Positions 2,797 to 10,754 are shown, counted from the first letter of the stretch. The stretch is DNA of 10,754 bases from an uncultured Spirochaetales bacterium (GCA_964543975.1 CAZJBZ010000137.1:1-10754), one strand, 5' to 3'. Notes: a model not told the origin generated them from the letters alone. Translations and numbers: made by a program.

Positions 2797-3339
2797 ATGG
2801 ACAACAATTGGAACGTTCTCTCGAAAAAGAAAGTGCTCGAAAGCGGTAAATTCCTTTCCGCTTTTCAACACACAATACAACTGCCGGACGGACGGACCAT
2901 CGACGACTGGATTTGGCTTTCGATGCCCGATTATATCAATGTCGTGGTAGTAGACATGTCCGGGCGGTTTATCATGCTTCGGCAGTCTAAATATGGAATA
3001 GAGGGACAATCCTACGCTCCGGTTGGCGGGTTTATCGAGCCGGGGGAAGAACCACTCTCCGCGGCAAAGAGAGAAACGCTGGAAGAGATTGGATACGAAG
3101 CGCCGCAGTGGACCTTTCTCGGAAGCTACCGTGTAGATCCAAACAGAGGCTGCGGGACTGCGTACGCCTATCTTGCGACCGGAGCGGAAAAAACCACCGA
3201 ACCGAACGCCGATGACCTCGAGGCTCAAGAGATTGTTTTTTTGAACCGGGTGGAGGTTGAAGATGCCCTCTATTCCGGTGGTTTTAAAGTACTTCCCTGG
3301 GCCAACAACGTGGCGATGGCCCTTTTATATCTGAAATAA
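2797..3339 (+). CDS. Nudix hydrolase, ADP-ribose/ADP-sugar pyrophosphatase-like
   Basis: Canonical Nudix box G-x5-E-x7-REUxEExGU is read in GFIEPGEEPLSAAKRETLEEIGY. The N-terminal region (W-x-VL-x4-V-x2-G-x-F...LPDGR...NVVVVD) resembles the NudF/ADPRase family N-domain. The ATG at 2797 is only 2 nt after the cyclase TAA (2792-2794), which indicates translational coupling. Confidence 0.8.
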   Translation: MDNNWNVLSKKKVLESGKFLSAFQHTIQLPDGRTIDDWIWLSMPDYINVVVVDMSGRFIMLRQSKYGIEGQSYAPVGGFIEPGEEPLSAAKRETLEEIGYEAPQWTFLGSYRVDPNRGCGTAYAYLATGAEKTTEPNADDLEAQEIVFLNRVEVEDALYSGGFKVLPWANNVAMALLYLK

Positions 3340-3515: not shown

Positions 3516-3592
3516 CTAATAAAAATCGAAAAAAAGGTTGTCAAAATTGTACTAATGTATTAAACTCATATTGTATTATGACATTAGTACAA
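3516..3592 (+). promoter_or_regulatory. Candidate sigma70-type promoter of the GntR operon, with an A-tract UP-like element and a perfect 12-bp inverted-repeat operator pair
   Basis: A-rich tract AATAAAAATCGAAAAAAAGG (3516-3535) precedes TTGTCA (3538-3543, -35-like). After a 17-nt spacer comes TAAACT (3561-3566, -10-like, 4/6). An alternative -10 is TATTAT at 3574-3579. Half-sites TTGTACTAATGT (3547-3558) and ACATTAGTACAA (3581-3592) are exact reverse complements. Together they give GTAC...N...GTAC, the GT-N-AC architecture typical of GntR-family operators. Confidence 0.45.
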
Positions 3593-3595
3593 TAG

Positions 3596-4012
3596 TTGGA
3601 GGATGGCGTGACTGAAAAGGATAATGAAAAAACGCTGGATTTTAGTCTTGATCCCAAAAGCGGTGTCCCTTTTTATAAACAGATCATACTCCAGATAGAG
3701 ATGGCAATTGCGGACGGCAGATTGGTTAGCGGAAATCAGCTGCCGACGGTCAGGGGGTTGGCGGTGGAATTGAAGATCAATCCGAATACGGTAGCCAGAG
3801 CGTACAATGAACTGGAAATCAGAGGTGTCGTAACCACCCAACAGGGTTCCGGCACCTTTATCAGCGACAAAAAAATTGAAATGAACGAGGTAGAAAGAGA
3901 GCGCGTTCTTTCCGAATTGACCCGCTCTTTTGTCACCACCGCCGGTTCGTACGGTTTTACAATCGATGATATTATCGATGCCCTGGAAGAGTATACCAGG
4001 GAAAACAGTTGA
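3596..4012 (+). CDS. GntR-family transcriptional regulator, YtrA-like subfamily (short C-terminal domain)
   Basis: Winged-HTH GntR signature QLPTVRGLAVELKINPNTVARAYNELEIRGVVTTQQGSGTFIS, with only about 50 aa C-terminal to it. The ORF track begins at TTG 3596. A better start may be GTG 3608, preceded by GGAGG (3598-3602) at 5-nt spacing. The stop TGA is at 4010-4012. Confidence 0.85.
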   Translation: MEDGVTEKDNEKTLDFSLDPKSGVPFYKQIILQIEMAIADGRLVSGNQLPTVRGLAVELKINPNTVARAYNELEIRGVVTTQQGSGTFISDKKIEMNEVERERVLSELTRSFVTTAGSYGFTIDDIIDALEEYTRENS

Positions 4013-4023
4013 GGAGGGAAAAT

Positions 4024-5151
4024 ATGGACCTTGTACAGAAAAAAATCAGTCGTATAAAAAACCTGCAGCAGAAAGCGTTGCAGCGGGATTTCAGCTACAA
4101 TGTTTTTTCTTACCTTGTTTTTGGATTATTTCTCACGGTGGGAATTCTGGTGCAACACATTCTCGATCCATCGGTGAGAACCGAAGAAATTGTCTGGATC
4201 GGCGGGGGGGCCATCGCTGTAGGAGTCATTCTCACGTTGGTGCCGCTCTGGATCATCGTTGTTCAATTGATAATCGCTGCATGGATCTGTATGTACTTCT
4301 TTTTTTCGTTCAATTTTTATCCGGTCTTTGTCTGGATTTCTTTAGGTCTTGTGTTCTCGGCCTGTTTCGAACTTATCTATCAATGGGACAAGGTTGTCAT
4401 CTTGCGGTTTGGAAAGTTTAAAAAGGTGCATGACGCGGGACTCTTCCTCTTAGTCCCCTTTGCCGACCGAATTGCCTCGTTTGTCGATACCAGAATCCGG
4501 GCCACCGATTTCAGCGCCGAAAAGACACTGACCAGCGATACGGTGCCGGTGCATGTCGACGGTCTCGCCTTCTGGATGATATGGGACGCAAAGAGGGCCA
4601 TTTTAGAAGTGGAAAATTTCGTGGAAGCCGTCACCCTTTCAGCCCAAACAGCACTGCGGGAATCGATCGGTAATCACGATTTGAATACACTGCTTACCAA
4701 TCGAAGGACCCTCTACAAGGAAATCCAGAGTGTTTTAGATACCAAGACCAATTCCTGGGGCATCACCATTCTCTCGGTGGAGTTCACCGACATCAATATT
4801 CCTCAGGGTCTTGAAGATTCGATGAGTAAGGTGGCCCAGGCCGAACGTGAAAAACAGTCCCGGGTCATCCTGGGTACCGCCGAAGTGGAGATTGCAAAGA
4901 AGTTTGCCGAAGCTTCGGAAAGCTACAAGGACAATGAAACCGCGCTCCACCTTAGGGCGATGAACATGATCTATGAAGGCATTCGGCAGAAAGGATCGAT
5001 GATCATGCTTCCCGCGTCCGCGCTGGATTCGATGAACTTGGGAACAGTAATGGGGACCGCCGCGTTAAAATCGATAGAAAGCGAAGCCAAGGAAGAGCCG
5101 TCGACTGAAACAGAGAGAGATGAAAATGAGAAAGGAGAACAAAAGAAATGA
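4024..5151 (+). CDS. SPFH/band-7 (stomatin/HflK-C/flotillin-like) membrane protein with a polytopic N-terminal region and an acidic C-terminal tail
   Basis: The N-terminal 120 aa hold 3-4 hydrophobic helices (YLVFGLFLTVGILV, IGGGAIAVGVILTLVPLWIIVVQLIIAAWICMYFFF, PVFVWISLGLVFSACF). An SPFH core follows (VVILRFGKFKKV...LFLLVPF...VDTR...TLTSD...LAFWMIWDAKRAILEVENF...ALRESIGNHDLNTLLTNR). The tail is Glu/Lys-rich. The track start at 4009 is a TTG overlapping the GntR stop. ATG 4024 is preferred because GAGGAGGG (4012-4019) lies 4 nt upstream. The stop overlaps the next start (ATGA, 5148-5151). Confidence 0.85.
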   Translation: MDLVQKKISRIKNLQQKALQRDFSYNVFSYLVFGLFLTVGILVQHILDPSVRTEEIVWIGGGAIAVGVILTLVPLWIIVVQLIIAAWICMYFFFSFNFYPVFVWISLGLVFSACFELIYQWDKVVILRFGKFKKVHDAGLFLLVPFADRIASFVDTRIRATDFSAEKTLTSDTVPVHVDGLAFWMIWDAKRAILEVENFVEAVTLSAQTALRESIGNHDLNTLLTNRRTLYKEIQSVLDTKTNSWGITILSVEFTDINIPQGLEDSMSKVAQAEREKQSRVILGTAEVEIAKKFAEASESYKDNETALHLRAMNMIYEGIRQKGSMIMLPASALDSMNLGTVMGTAALKSIESEAKEEPSTETERDENEKGEQKK

Positions 5152-5828
5152 TAAAGGTAGATAGCGTAATCAAAGATTATATCGCGGGGGAAACAACCGT
5201 CCATGCGCTGCGCGGGGTGTCGCTACAGGTTGACGACGGTGAGTTTATCTCGATAGCAGGCCCTTCCGGTTCGGGTAAGACAACCCTTCTCAATATCATC
5301 GGGTGTCTCGATTCGGCCGATGCGGGGAAAGTGTTTATCGACAATGAATTGGTGACCGAGAAAGACAGGCGGGAACTGGCCCTCCTGCGGCGTCGGAAAA
5401 TCGGTTTCGTGTTTCAGTCCTTTAATCTTATTCCCGTACTGACCGCGTATGAGAACGTGTCATTCTCTCTTTCGCTCTTAGGGATCGGGGATGAAGAAGT
5501 TTACGACAGAACGATGGATATGCTTCGAGAGGTGGGTTTGGAGACGATGGCCGATCGGCGACCGGCGGAACTGTCGGGCGGACAACAGCAGCGGGTTGCC
5601 GTGGCGAGGGCCCTGGTAAAGGACCCGCAGATGGTGCTGGCGGACGAACCGACTGCCAATCTCGATTCAAAAACGGGAGAAGACATTCTTGCTTTGATGG
5701 AGGACCTGAACAAGACCCACAACACGACATTTGTCTTCTCTACCCATGATCCCATGGTTATGGATTTTGCCCACCGTTTGGTACAGCTCCATGACGGTCA
5801 TATAACCGATGATAAAAGGAGGAACTGA
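5148..5828 (+). CDS. ABC transporter ATP-binding protein (LolD/MacB-NBD-like)
   Basis: Walker A GPSGSGKTT, Q-loop VFQSFNL, ABC signature LSGGQQQRVAVARAL, Walker B VLADEPTANLD, H-loop FSTHD. At 226 aa it is the typical size of a stand-alone NBD. It is coupled to the upstream gene by a 4-nt ATGA overlap and to the downstream gene by a 1-nt TGATG overlap. RBS AAAGGAG lies upstream. Confidence 0.9.
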   Translation: MIKVDSVIKDYIAGETTVHALRGVSLQVDDGEFISIAGPSGSGKTTLLNIIGCLDSADAGKVFIDNELVTEKDRRELALLRRRKIGFVFQSFNLIPVLTAYENVSFSLSLLGIGDEEVYDRTMDMLREVGLETMADRRPAELSGGQQQRVAVARALVKDPQMVLADEPTANLDSKTGEDILALMEDLNKTHNTTFVFSTHDPMVMDFAHRLVQLHDGHITDDKRRN

Positions 5829-7102
5829 TGAAATTCCTTCTCTCATTGGCATGGAAAAATCTGTTTAGACACAGACGGCGGACGATGATTACCGCGAGTG
5901 CTATAGCGGTTGGGCTGGCAATGTTTATCATGATGGAATCGATGCTTACCGGTATGAGCCGGGAGACGGAGCGGAACCTGGTATGGTACGAAACAGCGGC
6001 AGGCAAGATAATGACGCAACAATTCTGGGAAGAACGGGACCAGATGCCGCTGAAACACGCGATTGAAAATCCTGAACCGATTTATGAAACGCTGCGGGAA
6101 CTCGCTATACCCTTCACTGCCAGGACAGCATTCAGCGGCGAACTGATCGTACAGCAGGACCCCTTTCCCGAGCACGGATCGATGCAGCTGCAGTTCGTCG
6201 CCATCGATCCGGAAACGGACGGCAGAGTATTCAAACTGGAAGAGTCGGTTGCCGCGGGCCGGTTTCTTGGACCGGGAGAAAACGGAATCATGCTTGGAGC
6301 GTGGCTGGCCGGGGATTTGGGCGCGGAACCGGGGTATCCGGTAACAATCGTTACCAGGACCAAAACCGGGTTTTTTCAAACGGTAGACCTCACCGTTGTG
6401 GGAATTCTCAATACACCCAACCCGGTGATCAATCGGTCGATGGCTTTCATAACGAAGGAGACCGCTGATACCTATCTGCAGATGGAAGGGGCTGTCACCG
6501 AAATCGATCTTGGTTTTTCCGATTGGATCGAACCTGACCCTGTTGCCGAAACGATCGATAAAGCCCTGCGTGAAAGTGGGGCCGCTGCCGCAGCGGGCGG
6601 GAACGAATTGACGGTAAAGACGTGGGAAGAACTTGCTCAGGATTTTATCCGGATCGCAAGTGCGAAAGAAGTGGGAAGTAAGCTGATTCTCTTCCTCGTC
6701 TTTGTCATTGCTGCCGTGGGGATATCCAATACAATGCTGATGGCTGTGTTCGAACGTATTCGGGAGTTGGGAATGATGCGGGCGATGGGGATGGAAGACA
6801 GGCATATCCGCTGGAGTTTTCTCATGGAAGCGGGAGGGATCGGTTTATTAGGCGGTACAATCGGTGTCGTTCTCGGAGTGCTCATTAATATTCCTCTTGT
6901 CAATGTCGGTATCGATTTTTCGATGTTTGTCGAATCGATGGATATAGGATATCGGACGACGGGAATTATGCGGGGAATTTGGAATATCCAGACCATTGTG
7001 ACCGCTTTTTTTTCCGGGATTATTATCGCTGTCGTCATTGCGTTTATTCCTACTCGAAAAGCATTGAGGATGGAGATTACCGATTGCTTGCGGCATCAAT
7101 AG
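5828..7102 (+). CDS. ABC transporter permease, FtsX/MacB-fold (LolC/LolE-like), paralog 1
   Basis: N-terminus LSLAWKNLFRHRRRTMITASAIAVGLAMFIM (TM1) is followed by a large extracytoplasmic domain of about 220 aa. The C-terminal FtsX-type three-TM module follows (LILFLVFVIAAVGISNTMLMAVFERIRELGMMRAMGM...). At 424 aa it has the four-TM MacB/LolC-type topology. RBS AAGGAGG lies upstream. Confidence 0.9.
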   Translation: MKFLLSLAWKNLFRHRRRTMITASAIAVGLAMFIMMESMLTGMSRETERNLVWYETAAGKIMTQQFWEERDQMPLKHAIENPEPIYETLRELAIPFTARTAFSGELIVQQDPFPEHGSMQLQFVAIDPETDGRVFKLEESVAAGRFLGPGENGIMLGAWLAGDLGAEPGYPVTIVTRTKTGFFQTVDLTVVGILNTPNPVINRSMAFITKETADTYLQMEGAVTEIDLGFSDWIEPDPVAETIDKALRESGAAAAAGGNELTVKTWEELAQDFIRIASAKEVGSKLILFLVFVIAAVGISNTMLMAVFERIRELGMMRAMGMEDRHIRWSFLMEAGGIGLLGGTIGVVLGVLINIPLVNVGIDFSMFVESMDIGYRTTGIMRGIWNIQTIVTAFFSGIIIAVVIAFIPTRKALRMEITDCLRHQ

Positions 7103-7124
7103 CGGCATCTATAGGAGGCGTTAC

Positions 7125-8357
7125 ATGAAATTGCGTGAAATTGCATTTAGAAATATACGTAGGAACACCAGAAGGAGCATCCTCTCATTGAGCGCGATTG
7201 CGATAGCTTCTCTCACATTCGTGTTCCTCTTTTCTCTTCTCGGCGGGATGAAGGCCGATCTTGCGGAAAACCTTCACACCTACTACACGGGAGAGGTGAG
7301 GATACGAAATAGTGAATACAGTAAGTACGATTATCTCAATCCGCTTCACCTCAATGTCTCATCACCGGAAGAGGTGATAGAACTGGTAGAAAACAACGCG
7401 GCGGTGGATTTGGTCTCTCCCCGTGTACAATTCGGAACAGGTATTTACCGGGAGGGGAATACTTTTCCGGCAATTGGGATGGGAGTGGATTTTACCCGGG
7501 AGCGAAAGTATCAAGATTTGGAGCGGAATTTGGTCGAGGGGACCGTCCCATCCAACGGCAGGAATGAGGCCCTTATTGCCAAAGGACTATCCGAAGAGAT
7601 CGGAATCGGGGTGGGAGATAAGATGACACTGTTAACAAAAACTATGCGGGGCGGAACGAACGCAATCACCTTGACCGTAACGGGGATTGTCTCGTTTCCC
7701 GTAGCGGGGCTCAACGGAAGACTGTTTTTAGCCCCGCTCGACCGGATGCAGTATTTTCTTCGGATGAATGAGGGGGCCACGGAAATCCTTTTGAAACTTG
7801 CCCCCGAAGAGGAGAGTGCCGAGACCGCCGAGCGGCTTACTGCCGTTTTCAAACGGGCTGGTAGGGAAGAACTCATCGCGGAATCGTGGCGAAACATGAG
7901 CGAAACCTACAGTGCGATACAGATAGGGGACACTGTCTACACCATTATGGCGTTTCTCTTTTTCATATTGGGCAGCACCGTTATTATCAATACGACAATG
8001 ATGGTAGTCTACGAGAGAACAAAGGAGATAGGGACAATCTCGGCAATGGGGATGACCGGACCGGAAATCGTCAAACTGTTTTTTCTGGAAGCTTTTTTTA
8101 TCAGTGTTATCGGTTCGGCCCTCGGAGTCATCCTCGGAATAGGCATAACAATACCTATTGCCCATACGGGATTGAACTTTGGAGATGCGATGGAAGGGGT
8201 GGACATGGAGATGTCACCTGTTTTTTATCCTGTCCTGAATTTGCGCTCGACGGTTTTCGTCTTTTTCTATTCGACAATCGTCGCCTCGCTTGCCTCCTTT
8301 ATCCCTTCCCGCCGGGCCGCCAAAATCGAGCCGGTGGAGGCATTGCGGATGATTTAA
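7125..8357 (+). CDS. ABC transporter permease, FtsX/MacB-fold (LolC/LolE-like), paralog 2
   Basis: N-terminus EIAFRNIRRNTRRSILSLSAIAIASLTFVFL gives the same architecture as the upstream permease. The C-terminal FtsX module is AFLFFILGSTVIINTTMMVVYERTKEIGTISAMGM.... RBS AGGAGG lies 7 nt upstream of the ATG at 7125. Confidence 0.9.
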   Translation: MKLREIAFRNIRRNTRRSILSLSAIAIASLTFVFLFSLLGGMKADLAENLHTYYTGEVRIRNSEYSKYDYLNPLHLNVSSPEEVIELVENNAAVDLVSPRVQFGTGIYREGNTFPAIGMGVDFTRERKYQDLERNLVEGTVPSNGRNEALIAKGLSEEIGIGVGDKMTLLTKTMRGGTNAITLTVTGIVSFPVAGLNGRLFLAPLDRMQYFLRMNEGATEILLKLAPEEESAETAERLTAVFKRAGREELIAESWRNMSETYSAIQIGDTVYTIMAFLFFILGSTVIINTTMMVVYERTKEIGTISAMGMTGPEIVKLFFLEAFFISVIGSALGVILGIGITIPIAHTGLNFGDAMEGVDMEMSPVFYPVLNLRSTVFVFFYSTIVASLASFIPSRRAAKIEPVEALRMI

Positions 8358-8393
8358 CGCCACAGAGATAATTGCAATAAGGAGTAAAAAAGA

Positions 8394-9173
8394 ATGAAAC
8401 GACGAAATATGATACAATCCACGAGAGCACACATGAATCTCAGCCGCATCCTGTTGGCTGCGGCTTTTTTTGTCATCGCTGCAGGCGCCGTGTGGGCGCA
8501 GGATGTTGACCGGATACTTGAACGCATGGAAGGGAACAGGATCCACGAAACGTCCCGCTCTGAAGGGAAGATGATCATCGAAGACCGTTTCGGTAAGAAG
8601 GTCAGTACGTTTATCTCGTACAGCAGGGGTGCGGAAGAGAGTCTTGTCGAGTTCACTTCAAAACAGGAGCAGGGGCAAAAAATACTGCGTACCGAAGATG
8701 AAATCTACCTCTACTATCCTGACGCGGAAGAGATAATCCGGATGCAGGGTTCGGCACTGCGTGAATCGGTCTTGGGCTCCGATTTCTCATACGAGGACAT
8801 GACGGGGGAAAAGAGTATCCTCGACACCTTCGAGCCGAAACTCCTTGGAACGGAAACGATAGATGGGCACGATTGCTATAAGATCGAGCTAAAGGCGAAA
8901 ACACGGAATGTACCCTATCCTAAAGAGATTGTCTGGGTCGATAAAGATCGATATATCGCGTGGCAGGTGCATAAGTTTTCCCTCTCCGGAAAGCTTCTGA
9001 AAGAGATGACGGTCCATGAGGTAAAGGAGGTGAAGGGTAAAGTAATTCCCACCCACATGACGATGGTCGATACCATGAAAAAGAACTCAAGTACCGAACT
9101 GATCATTGAAGAGATGAAAATCAATGTCTCACTCGATCCTTCTCTCTTCTCATTGGAGGAGCTTACATGGTGA
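8394..9173 (+). CDS. Secreted periplasmic protein resembling the LolA-fold 'outer-membrane lipoprotein-sorting protein' family
   Basis: Signal peptide MNLSRILLAAAFFVIAAGAVWA|QD has no lipobox Cys. The mature part is about 225 aa, beta-rich, with motifs I associate with LolA-like/DUF-type lipoprotein-sorting proteins (RFGKK..., GSDFSYEDM, IDGHDCYKIELKAK, VWVDKDRYIAWQVHKF). RBS AAGGAG lies 7 nt upstream of ATG 8394. A possible alternative start is ATG 8433. The family assignment comes from memory of motif patterns and needs an HMM check. Confidence 0.65.
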   Translation: MKRRNMIQSTRAHMNLSRILLAAAFFVIAAGAVWAQDVDRILERMEGNRIHETSRSEGKMIIEDRFGKKVSTFISYSRGAEESLVEFTSKQEQGQKILRTEDEIYLYYPDAEEIIRMQGSALRESVLGSDFSYEDMTGEKSILDTFEPKLLGTETIDGHDCYKIELKAKTRNVPYPKEIVWVDKDRYIAWQVHKFSLSGKLLKEMTVHEVKEVKGKVIPTHMTMVDTMKKNSSTELIIEEMKINVSLDPSLFSLEELTW

Positions 9174-10453
9174 GAGGAAGCTTCTTTCGAGCACCTTGCC
9201 GTGCCGTACTCTGCGGTTTCTTCTTATTGTTTTTCGCCGGTCACGGGTTCGCGGAAAATGTTGTCTCCGTCGATCTTCGACCCATGCTCTCATTAGCAAG
9301 AACACCGGAAAACGATGGGAGTGAGTGGCTCTTTACCGCTCTTGGTGATGCAGGCGTTACCTTTTCCTCGAGAGGCAATAAGAATGTTAAGGCGGAGCTT
9401 GACTTGGACCTGACGGTAGGGCAAAACGTCCTCTTTGATGTTTCTCGTGCCTATATCAAGGTGCGGTTCCCCTGGTTCAGGTCGGTCCTGGGTAAAAACC
9501 GGATTTCCTGGGGCGAAGGGGTGATGTTCAACGCCGGCGACTTGATCGCCCCATCTTCCGGTTTCTCAACAGATTTGACACAGAGTGTTTTTCACGATGC
9601 CGGAGTCTGGATGGTTGAAGGATACATTCCGTTAGGCCGTTTCGCTTTTGCGGAGATCGTGGTGCTTCCGCCTGTCCCCACTTTGTTCCCTGTCGAATTG
9701 ACTACCGCATTGAGCCAAGCCGTGTCCGGGGTGCCCGGCGAGGCCGACGGAACACCTCCTCCAGAATCGGTGGCCGGTCTTACCCTCCCCTCAATAGAAG
9801 AAACAGCGTTGGGCGGAAGGATCTACCTGAAACCGCTGGGCATAAAGACCGAGGCGGGATATCTTTTCGAAGGCGCACAAGAAGCAGTCAATATGAAGCA
9901 TCGGCCCTACCTCAGTCTGCAGTGGCATCTACTGGTCGATTGGCAGGTTTCCGCATCAACGATCATTCCTGGTGAAGCGAGCGAAGGAAAAGAGTTATCT
10001 GAGGAGGCGTGGGAGAATACTGAAATAAGCTGGGGCCTCTTTCACATGCACAATTTTCGTCGCGGCGGTTCAATATCCTTACGTCTGGAGAGTACGGTCC
10101 GGCCGGCCGGTTCGTGGGAGCCGATAGAACACTCGGTCGAAAACGGTACCGTCACTGCGATCGAAGGGCCCGAGGAAACGGAGTCGGGGGAGCGAAGCGG
10201 AGAACAATACGGTATCCTCCTCTATCCTGAGGTCGTCATAAGCCCGACTTCCTCGCTTTCGTTCATCGGACGGAGTGTCTTTTCTCCTATTGATGCCTCC
10301 GGTCTGGTTACGGTCGGTACAAGCTGGAATATCTATCAAGGGTTTACCTTGTTGGGTTTCGTTTCCGTTCAAGGAGGCGGCCCGAAAGACCTTTTCGGCT
10401 GGGACAGAGCAGGTGATTTTGCCGTCAACCTGGGAATGGAGTTTACTTTTTAG
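9167..10453 (+). CDS. Putative outer-membrane beta-barrel protein (signal peptide; C-terminal aromatic residue) of unknown function
   Basis: Signal peptide MVRGSFFRAPCRAVLCGFFLLFFAGHGFA|EN. The protein ends ...NLGMEFTF with a terminal Phe, the classic signal recognised by the OMP-assembly machinery. The sequence is rich in alternating hydrophobic/polar stretches and Gly/aromatic residues. Its start overlaps the upstream stop by 7 nt (ATGGTGA), and GGAGGAG lies 5 nt upstream. Confidence 0.6.
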   Translation: MVRGSFFRAPCRAVLCGFFLLFFAGHGFAENVVSVDLRPMLSLARTPENDGSEWLFTALGDAGVTFSSRGNKNVKAELDLDLTVGQNVLFDVSRAYIKVRFPWFRSVLGKNRISWGEGVMFNAGDLIAPSSGFSTDLTQSVFHDAGVWMVEGYIPLGRFAFAEIVVLPPVPTLFPVELTTALSQAVSGVPGEADGTPPPESVAGLTLPSIEETALGGRIYLKPLGIKTEAGYLFEGAQEAVNMKHRPYLSLQWHLLVDWQVSASTIIPGEASEGKELSEEAWENTEISWGLFHMHNFRRGGSISLRLESTVRPAGSWEPIEHSVENGTVTAIEGPEETESGERSGEQYGILLYPEVVISPTSSLSFIGRSVFSPIDASGLVTVGTSWNIYQGFTLLGFVSVQGGGPKDLFGWDRAGDFAVNLGMEFTF

Positions 10454-10633: not shown

Positions 10634-10754
10634 ATGAATCCAAGGATAATCCACTCCCTGAAAAAGAGCATGAGGGTTTTTTCATTCCTACTCTTGATTT
10701 TTATTCCTGCTGTTAGCGGTCTGTCTCAATCGACATCCGAGCCTGCGGAGCGGT
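10634..10754 (+). CDS. Partial (5' end only) gene for a secreted/exported hypothetical protein; it continues beyond the window
   Basis: ATG 10634 is preceded by GAGG (10624-10627) at 6-nt spacing. The open frame runs to the window end without a stop. It translates to MNPRIIHSLKKSMRVFSFLLLIFIPAVSGLSQSTSEPAER, i.e. a positive n-region plus a hydrophobic core, which is signal-peptide-like. A 180-bp AT-rich gap separates it from the upstream operon, suggesting its own promoter. Confidence 0.4.
   Translation, partial: MNPRIIHSLKKSMRVFSFLLLIFIPAVSGLSQSTSEPAER

Follow-up and report, generated by a model that had tools for sequence, protein, structure and literature searches.

What kind of transport system is specified when an ATP-binding cassette (ABC) transporter of the MacB/LolCDE type, a LolA-fold periplasmic protein and an outer-membrane β-barrel are encoded in a single operon? 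This question was addressed for a seven-gene operon on a 10,754-nucleotide stretch of DNA from an uncultured Spirochaetales bacterium (GCA_964543975.1 CAZJBZ010000137.1:1-10754), which was analysed over its whole length and is referred to here as the window. A first reading of the sequence (the original prediction) had proposed a Lol-like shuttle, in which a cargo is extracted by the ABC transporter, passed to a soluble carrier and delivered to the barrel as acceptor. The interpretation favoured here, which we give about an even chance of being correct, is a repressor-controlled export route across both membranes for a hydrophobic or amphipathic non-protein cargo such as a lipid, glycolipid, secondary metabolite or toxic hydrophobe. 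The conserved spirochaete operon is accordingly described as an ABC-driven spirochaete version of a widespread transport module, and not as a new kind of machine.

Nine genes were located in the window, all on the + strand, and seven of them form the operon under study. In order these encode a YtrA-subfamily GntR regulator (3596–4012), a stomatin-type SPFH protein (4009–5151), an ABC ATPase of the DevA/LolD/MacB/FtsE group (5148–5828), type VII ABC permease 1 (5828–7102), its paralogue permease 2 (7125–8357), a soluble periplasmic LolA-fold protein of the PF17131/LolA3 group (8394–9173), termed the carrier below, and an 18-strand outer-membrane β-barrel (9167–10453). All seven open reading frames (ORFs) had been predicted at these coordinates; domain searches agreed with the assigned functions for six, and the seventh, the barrel, gave no family match. 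The six gene junctions measure −4, −4, −1, +22, +36 and −7 nt, giving intergenic gaps of 36 nt or less throughout. The overlaps ATGA, TGATG and ATGGTGA listed in the original prediction are present, although it named five junctions for the six boundaries and omitted the one between the GntR and SPFH genes.

The conservation of the operon was examined by a genome scan, which revealed 80 loci, all within the Spirochaetota (Marispirochaeta, Sphaerochaeta, Thalassospirochaeta and many metagenome-assembled genomes). Gene order was counted in the 56 loci that had at least 6.3 kb of upstream sequence. The seven genes were found in the same order in 45 of these, far beyond chance and as the original prediction had expected. 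A further ten loci contained the ATPase, permease 1, permease 2, LolA-like and barrel genes without GntR or SPFH, giving a five-gene core conserved in 55/56 loci. The GntR and SPFH genes are an optional module, and the functional core is therefore taken to be the remaining five genes. The SPFH gene was always paired with GntR and never occurred alone. Three of the ten five-gene loci were inspected for other regulators, and a TetR gene was found directly upstream of the ATPase gene in two (L081 and L008) and a divergent sigma-54 activator in the third (L017). Candidatus Marispirochaeta associata contains two copies of the system (L017 and L018), one with GntR and SPFH and one lacking both and preceded by the divergent sigma-54 activator, which suggests paralogous systems that respond to different inducers.

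Within the five-gene core the carrier and barrel genes are the tightest unit. The junction between them measured −10 to +40 nt in 75/76 loci, with a start-stop overlap in 65, the overlap being 7 nt in 42 loci and 4 nt in 20. The one remaining locus of the 56 (L082, 8210–10233) retained only the LolA-like and barrel pair, beside a gene of the histidine-biosynthesis family (PF00977) and with no ABC genes within 8 kb, indicating that the pair can persist without an adjacent pump. In another locus (L068) the LolA-like gene lay ~2.1 kb upstream of the barrel match, ~1.3 kb farther from the barrel than elsewhere, suggesting an insertion between the two genes.

The carrier has a type I signal peptide. 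It lacks a lipobox, which was detected in just 2/60 relatives. The sequence passed the Pfam gathering cut-off for PF17131 LolA_like (E 8.4e-55; TP_0789-like, LolA3 group), has the fold of the solved members of that family, and matched the solved proteins 3BUU, 9TP6, 3BK5 and 4Z48, so that the LolA fold proposed for ORF 8394–9173 was borne out. The score against DUF1329 was 21.4 bits, below the cut-off of 23.1. By these matches the carrier is classed as LolA3-type and not as a canonical LolA. The structure 9TP6 is LolA3 of Porphyromonas gingivalis (PGN0947), a protein that binds LolB only very weakly and in which the conserved Arg and Leu are absent (PMC13103446). In Flavobacterium johnsoniae deletion of lolA3 leaves gliding and type IX secretion intact, whereas deletion of lolA1 or lolB1 disrupts both (PMC11885536). 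These experiments set the PF17131/LolA3 subgroup apart from general lipoprotein sorting.

The structure of ORF 9167–10453 was modelled confidently as a closed 18-strand outer-membrane barrel, in agreement with the predicted β-barrel with a C-terminal Phe, and an aromatic C-terminal residue was present in 82/85 members of the barrel family. No Pfam or NCBIfam model matched the protein, and neither the protein nor the family profile matched the sequence of any solved structure. A homologue search returned 103 proteins, all unannotated, and those bearing an organism name belonged to the Spirochaetia; a second, profile-based search gave no members beyond the Spirochaetota. Since an exhaustive profile search of 1.84 billion representatives yielded only 463 relatives at E ≤0.001, the family is considered small. 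With this locus a barrel family confined to spirochaetes is defined, one for which current domain libraries lack a model. Within the genome scan the family was absent from Borrelia and Treponema genomes.

The nearest solved structures to the barrel model were OccD3, AlgE and Wzi, with OccAB4, ChiP and LamB also close, and MOMP and ScrY listed beside the last two. The barrel had been proposed as an acceptor in place of LolB, but it resembles channels (Occ, AlgE, Wzi, DUF1302) and not an insertase or acceptor. Judged by the Pfam cut-off and the N-terminal helical plug, it falls outside the Wzi capsule-assembly barrels (PF14052), and it does not fit the 16-strand Omp85/TamA barrel exemplified by BBJ25 of Borrelia. 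The most conserved stretch of the family, S-W-G-x-G-x-x-F-N-A-G-D (residues 114–125, window 9506–9541), lies in the long third outer loop, which was modelled at lower confidence (predicted local distance difference test score, pLDDT, ~70). By comparison with porins this motif would sit where the constriction loop is found, and in the model it could act as a constriction or binding loop.

When loci beyond the spirochaetes were compared, PF17131 or DUF1329 proteins were found adjoining barrels of this kind, together with MMPL/RND or FtsX-type ABC transporters, in several other phyla. A Vibrio sp. HDW18 locus (L087) encodes an ATPase, an FtsX permease, a PF17131 protein and an unannotated 414-residue protein with a signal peptide and a C-terminal Phe. 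In Burkholderia thailandensis (L088) a PF17131 protein is accompanied by an ATPase, a double FtsX permease and a 380-residue protein barely under the DUF1302 cut-off, and in Prevotella nigrescens (L089) two ABC ATPases and an MMPL protein occur with PF17131 and a DUF1302 protein. A Sulfitobacter locus (L090) contains a type I polyketide synthase, MMPL and PF17131, and a Persicobacter locus (L085) contains TetR, a secreted protein of unknown function, an ATPase, two permeases and PF17131. The 378-residue Persicobacter protein, encoded two genes upstream of PF17131, was considered as a barrel relative and rejected, having no detectable homology. In E. coli O157 (L086) an ATPase, a hypothetical protein, a permease, PF17131 and a 462-residue hypothetical protein are encoded among ketoacyl synthase and malonyltransferase genes. 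In this E. coli O157:H7 EDL933 locus (L086, 1–10854) the module stands amid β-ketoacyl synthase and acyl carrier protein malonyltransferase genes, next to ycdU, a setting which hints that the E. coli cargo may be a locally made lipid or polyketide. A trio of the TetR-MMPL-PF17131 type was also observed in a spirochaete (L004, 8–4174, minus strand), divergent from and beside the seven-gene cluster, so that one organism holds an RND-type and an ABC-type LolA-like module side by side.

The relationship between the barrel and the DUF1302 proteins was assessed by several comparisons. The motif G-[KR]-x-R-x-x-W-G-x-G was found at the same position in the barrel family and in the Prevotella, Burkholderia and Vibrio proteins, whose genes come after that of PF17131 or of its ABC permease, and alignment of the barrel family with DUF1302-like proteins by hhalign gave E 4.5e-4 over 117 columns with a probability of 33%. 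The N-terminal part of the Wzi model was weakly matched by the Prevotella DUF1302 protein and by 27/85 members of the barrel family. None of the 85 members matched DUF1302 (PF06980) in Pfam at E up to 1, and when every ORF in the Vibrio, E. coli and Persicobacter loci was searched with the barrel profile in HMMER, the sole match was one of 16 residues to the motif, which was not significant. The DUF1302 family has been modelled as an 18-strand barrel with an Acinetobacter carboxylate channel and AlgE as nearest structures, and AlphaFold-Multimer gave a DUF1302–DUF1329 complex with an interface score (ipTM) of 0.84 (PMC13499233). The spirochaete barrel fits this pattern, having 18 strands, Occ channels and AlgE as nearest structures and a gene directly after that of a LolA-superfamily protein. 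On this evidence the barrel is somewhat more probably than otherwise a remote relative of the DUF1302/Wzi-like barrels.

The ATPase (ABC_tran E 1.6e-33) scored 219 bits against DevA and 213.5 bits against LolD (TIGR02211), both under the curated cut-offs (307.75 for LolD), and its scores were similar across the DevA, DarD, FtsE, MacB and LolD models. Both permeases contain FtsX and MacB_PCD domains (7e-20 and 1.4e-07 for permease 1; 2.8e-18 and 3.3e-16 for permease 2) and are paralogous, with 27% identity (E 1e-51). Four hydrophobic segments were identified in each, with a periplasmic domain of ~245 residues between the first and second. These domains and this topology confirm the predicted MacB/LolCDE-type transporter with a stand-alone ATPase and two paralogous four-transmembrane permeases. 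The best NCBIfam match of the permeases was the lolCE equivalog (TIGR02212), which they matched at 95.8 and 127.1 bits, the cut-off being 362.45. Among solved proteins, permease 1 was closest to YtrF of B. subtilis (E 3.9e-14), LolE, LolF and MacB, and permease 2 to LolF (1e-19). Because the Lol equivalog scores lie far under the curated cut-offs, the transporter is assigned by sequence to the type VII (MacB/LolCE/FtsX) ABC transporters and does not count strictly as either LolCDE or MacB. When permease 2 was aligned to LolF, a stretch around residues 170–185 was ~5 residues shorter, at what we take to be the position of the LolC-type Hook.

The absence of a HlyD/MacA-type adaptor, on which the original prediction had relied, was confirmed: none was found in the window or within 10 kb of the clusters in three distant genomes, Marispirochaeta aestuarii (L001), Spirochaeta africana (L002) and a third, more distant genome (L004). 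The same neighbourhoods and the window also contained no TolC-family (OEP) domain. The operon resembles MacAB-TolC in the MacB_PCD and FtsX domains of both permeases, and resembles the T. pallidum TP0962–TP0969 cluster in having a separate ATPase and two different permeases (PMC8407342). The T. pallidum heterodimeric MacB, however, has a MacA adaptor and TolC-like ducts and represents an adaptor-dependent spirochaete pump (PMC8407342), while in the loci examined here no MacA/HlyD adaptor or TolC duct is present in or near the operon and the barrel is a single chain. A MacAB-TolC pump with its partners encoded elsewhere was therefore rejected as the main interpretation, since the pump is always encoded together with a carrier and barrel of its own.

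Among the systems closest in organisation, the one that has been studied is AmeABCD of Castellaniella defragrans, a monoterpene efflux system. It is made up of an outer-membrane protein of the DUF1302 family, a LolA-superfamily protein of the DUF1329 family, a propeller protein and an HAE3 RND pump, and when it is deleted the cells tolerate monoterpenes less well and accumulate more Nile Red (PMC6394551). Both systems combine an energised inner-membrane transporter with a LolA-superfamily protein and a dedicated barrel, and neither has a classical adaptor or TolC. They differ in that the motor here is a type VII ABC heterodimer instead of an RND pump and there is no β-propeller partner. In relation to the DUF1302 and DUF1329 modules in general, the carrier here belongs to PF17131 and falls under the DUF1329 cut-off, and the barrel has no DUF1302 Pfam match. 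Genes for DUF1302, DUF1329, BNR and RND proteins are cofit in several bacteria, and export of an envelope component has been proposed for them (bioRxiv 10.1101/072470). In the Bacteroidota, TetR-MMPL-PF17131 operons are induced up to ~100-fold by iron limitation (PMC10434189); these differ from the present operon in having an MMPL pump and TetR control.

[quoted passage not shown] In both spirochaete clusters an outer-membrane barrel is encoded with a LolA-like protein and an ABC transporter resembling MacB. Orthology with the BBJ cluster was considered and rejected, as BBJ28 did not appear when the plasmid collection was searched by tblastn with the LolA-like protein. AmeABCD and BBJ23–29 already embody the idea of the original prediction, and the novelty it implied is reduced to that extent (PMC6394551, PMC13078400). 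The variant described here is ABC-driven and is marked by the spirochaete-restricted barrel family and the regulatory addition of GntR and SPFH.

A possible mechanism can be described from these comparisons. The ABC transporter would use ATP to lift the cargo from the outer leaflet of the inner membrane or from the periplasm, the cargo would be received in the groove of the LolA-fold protein, and it would then leave through the barrel across the outer membrane. Three points favour a non-protein hydrophobic cargo: how LolA3 behaves, the occurrence of TetR at some loci, and the lipid or polyketide genes that neighbour the module in other phyla. TetR regulators usually sense small ligands. The tight coupling of the carrier and barrel genes, together with the predicted DUF1302–DUF1329 complex, means that a docked partner fits at least as well as a free shuttle, and by analogy with that complex we lean slightly towards a LolA-fold protein that is mostly docked on the barrel over one that diffuses in the manner of LolA.

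A true Lol-like shuttle, as first proposed, would extract a subset of lipoproteins with the ABC transporter, ferry them on the soluble LolA-like protein and use the barrel to insert them or flip them to the surface. The parts list, the folds and the missing adaptor of that proposal stood, but the carrier proved not to be a canonical LolA and the barrel not to resemble an acceptor. As in LolCDE-LolA-LolB, there is an ATPase with a pair of paralogous permeases of the FtsX fold, and the periplasmic LolA-fold protein is soluble, here with a type I signal peptide; the permeases are nearest to LolF (1e-19) and LolE, with lolCE as best NCBIfam match, and spirochaetes reportedly have no LolB and no established route for taking surface lipoproteins across the outer membrane (PMC11326224, PMC13078400). 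Set against this are the sub-cut-off LolD and lolCE scores, the LolA3-type carrier with the LolB-binding and lolA3-deletion results described above (PMC13103446, PMC11885536), the lack of LolB and the integral barrel as outer-membrane partner, and the absence of the barrel family from Borrelia and Treponema in the genome scan. Lol is also an unregulated housekeeping unit, whereas the repressor control, swappable regulators and paralogous copies (L017, L018) found here suggest an accessory inducible system. None of the observations named in the original prediction as able to overturn it was made, that is, a carrier without the LolA fold, an ORF 9167–10453 that is not a barrel, permeases paired with a conserved MacA adaptor encoded elsewhere, or a failure of the seven genes to co-occur. 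On balance a Lol-like shuttle is regarded as unlikely, although it carries more weight than the other alternatives. A related and distinctly less probable arrangement is a dedicated surface-export machine, in which the type VII ABC transporter would pass an acylated cargo (a lipoprotein subset or glycolipid) to a LolA3 carrier docked on a private barrel for release to the outer leaflet or surface. If correct, this would assign the LolA3/PF17131 and DUF1302-like families a defined role for the first time and would supply the missing outer-membrane translocation step for spirochaete surface lipids or lipoproteins.

Transport in the opposite direction, with the barrel admitting hydrophobic nutrients such as long-chain esters, alkanes or fatty acids and the LolA-like protein ferrying them inward for catabolism, is improbable, though marginally less so than the surface-export machine. 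The uptake channels OccD3, OccAB4, ChiP and LamB are among the nearest structures of the barrel, but AlgE and Wzi, which serve polysaccharide export and surface assembly, are equally close, and no catabolic genes are conserved beside the cluster within 10 kb in L001, L002 and L004. Pseudomonas putida DUF1302/DUF1329 mutants show a growth defect on the fatty esters Tween 20 and butyl stearate (bioRxiv 10.1101/2020.07.04.188060), and in Thalassolituus an MMPL-LolA-like fusion and a neighbouring porin-like gene are induced by a C28 alkane (PMC6304351). The remaining alternative is that the ABC transporter serves in sensing or remodelling, like YtrF, BceAB or FtsEX, and acts on the cell wall or periplasmic enzymes, the LolA-like and barrel pair being separate and merely co-transcribed. 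To our knowledge the characterised type VII ABC transporters (MacB, LolCDE, FtsEX) are extractors, exporters or mechanotransducers and include no importer, which counts against uptake. The sensing device agrees with YtrF as closest solved relative of permease 1 (E 3.9e-14), with a YtrA-type regulator as in the Bacillus ytr operon, and with the pair that stands without ABC genes in L082. It is nevertheless the least probable of the alternatives, as the ABC genes and the pair occur together in 55/56 loci across genera, they are together also in Vibrio and E. coli O157, the Burkholderia ABC genes accompany PF17131 and a DUF1302-like protein, and the gaps between the spirochaete genes are 36 nt or less.

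Several points weigh against the export route favoured here. The homology between the barrel and DUF1302 is merely suggestive (hhalign 33%, HMMER not significant), the closest solved neighbours of the barrel include uptake channels (Occ, LamB, ChiP), and by analogy the fatty-ester growth defect of the P. putida mutants could reflect uptake. In addition, the best solved relatives of the permeases are LolF and LolE, leaving room for lipoprotein extraction, and the orientation of the SPFH protein is based solely on a hydropathy count and the positive-inside rule.

The PF17131/LolA3 and DUF1302/DUF1329 families are widespread, occur in pathogens too and have recently been termed "dark" proteins, no member having an identified cargo. 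The comparisons indicate that, where a LolA-fold protein is paired with an 18-strand barrel, the driving pump may be either a Lol/MacB-type ABC transporter or one of the MMPL/RND class, that the pair is maintained as a translationally coupled unit, and that the module plugs into varied regulators, mostly YtrA-type GntR with SPFH, and TetR or a sigma-54 activator in the others examined. This modularity offers a useful guide for work on the passage of hydrophobic molecules through the periplasm and outer membrane where no TolC-type duct is involved.

The regulator (PF00392 E 1.6e-17) is a protein of 134–138 residues and probably starts at GTG 3608 (134 residues), which is preceded 5 nt upstream by GGAGG. 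Near full-length matches to the 121–134-residue YtrA-type structures 4R1H, 4HAM and 3NEU supported the predicted YtrA type; scores against the Rv1152 and PmtR family models were under their cut-offs. The features of the YtrA subfamily are present, namely a winged helix with a short C-terminal domain, a palindromic candidate operator at its own promoter and adjoining ABC genes. As in B. subtilis ytrGABCDEF, an ABC operon with an FtsX-fold permease is headed by the gene for a short GntR repressor of the YtrA type, and YtrF is closest to permease 1; the Bacillus operon is from a Gram-positive organism and has no outer-membrane parts or LolA-like protein. Bacillus YtrA is linked to cell-wall antibiotics.

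A sigma-70-like promoter (TTGTCA, 17-nt spacer, TAAACT; 9/12 in a consensus scan) was located at 3538–3566 on the + strand. The original prediction had placed a promoter near 3538–3580, and by score alone the match is no better than chance, six such sites having been found in the region against 7.6 expected; conservation supports it, with TTGAC found upstream of gntR, 7–34 nt before the first operator half-site, in 38/45 related loci. The match is overlapped by a candidate YtrA-type operator (3546–3593, strand-neutral), an inverted repeat with 18-nt arms that are 89% complementary. The sequence TTGTAYTA occurs at 3547–3554, 3571–3578 and 3585–3592, and these three matches, all inside the repeat, are the only ones in the 10.7-kb window, against 0.33 expected. 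Across the 45 related loci 93 sites fell within 160 nt upstream of gntR and 26 in the other 782,814 nt, while the operator was found in 0/10 of the five-gene loci lacking GntR and SPFH. We read this as a conserved autoregulated promoter that may be occluded by the bound repressor. GntR would then repress the operon by promoter occlusion until released by a signal, and the locus supplies a clear predicted operator motif for a YtrA-type repressor.

The SPFH protein scored 112.4 bits against Band_7 (E 3.3e-32; cut-off 23.6), and its best solved relatives were stomatin (2e-33), PH stomatin (2.8e-32) and QmcA. The overlap of its gene with GntR holds only with TTG 4009 as start; ATG 4024, preceded by GGAGG, is more likely and would leave an 11-nt gap after GntR. 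Hydrophobic segments at residues 30–48 and 62–124 give four predicted N-terminal spans, consistent with a multi-span membrane anchor, and the protein probably faces the cytoplasm. As a conjecture, it would serve as an accessory scaffold or membrane stabiliser, co-expressed only in the GntR-regulated version of the system.

A search of the window against Rfam gave no RNA family match. Terminator-like matches inside the operon numbered 14, compared with 8.2 ± 2.9 in shuffled sequence, and were set aside because none is placed at a gene boundary so as to suggest that transcription stops there. Immediately upstream of the operon are a CHASE2-domain adenylate/guanylate cyclase gene (86–2794) and, after a 2-nt gap, a NUDIX hydrolase gene (2797–3339). 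Two related clusters are also preceded by cyclic-nucleotide signalling genes, in L008 a HAMP-cyclase and in L081 a GGDEF response regulator, which may be coincidence. Downstream of the barrel gene, a + strand ORF with a signal-peptide-like N-terminus (MNPRIIHSLKKSMRVFSFLLLIF...) begins at ~10634 and continues past the end of the window at 10754.

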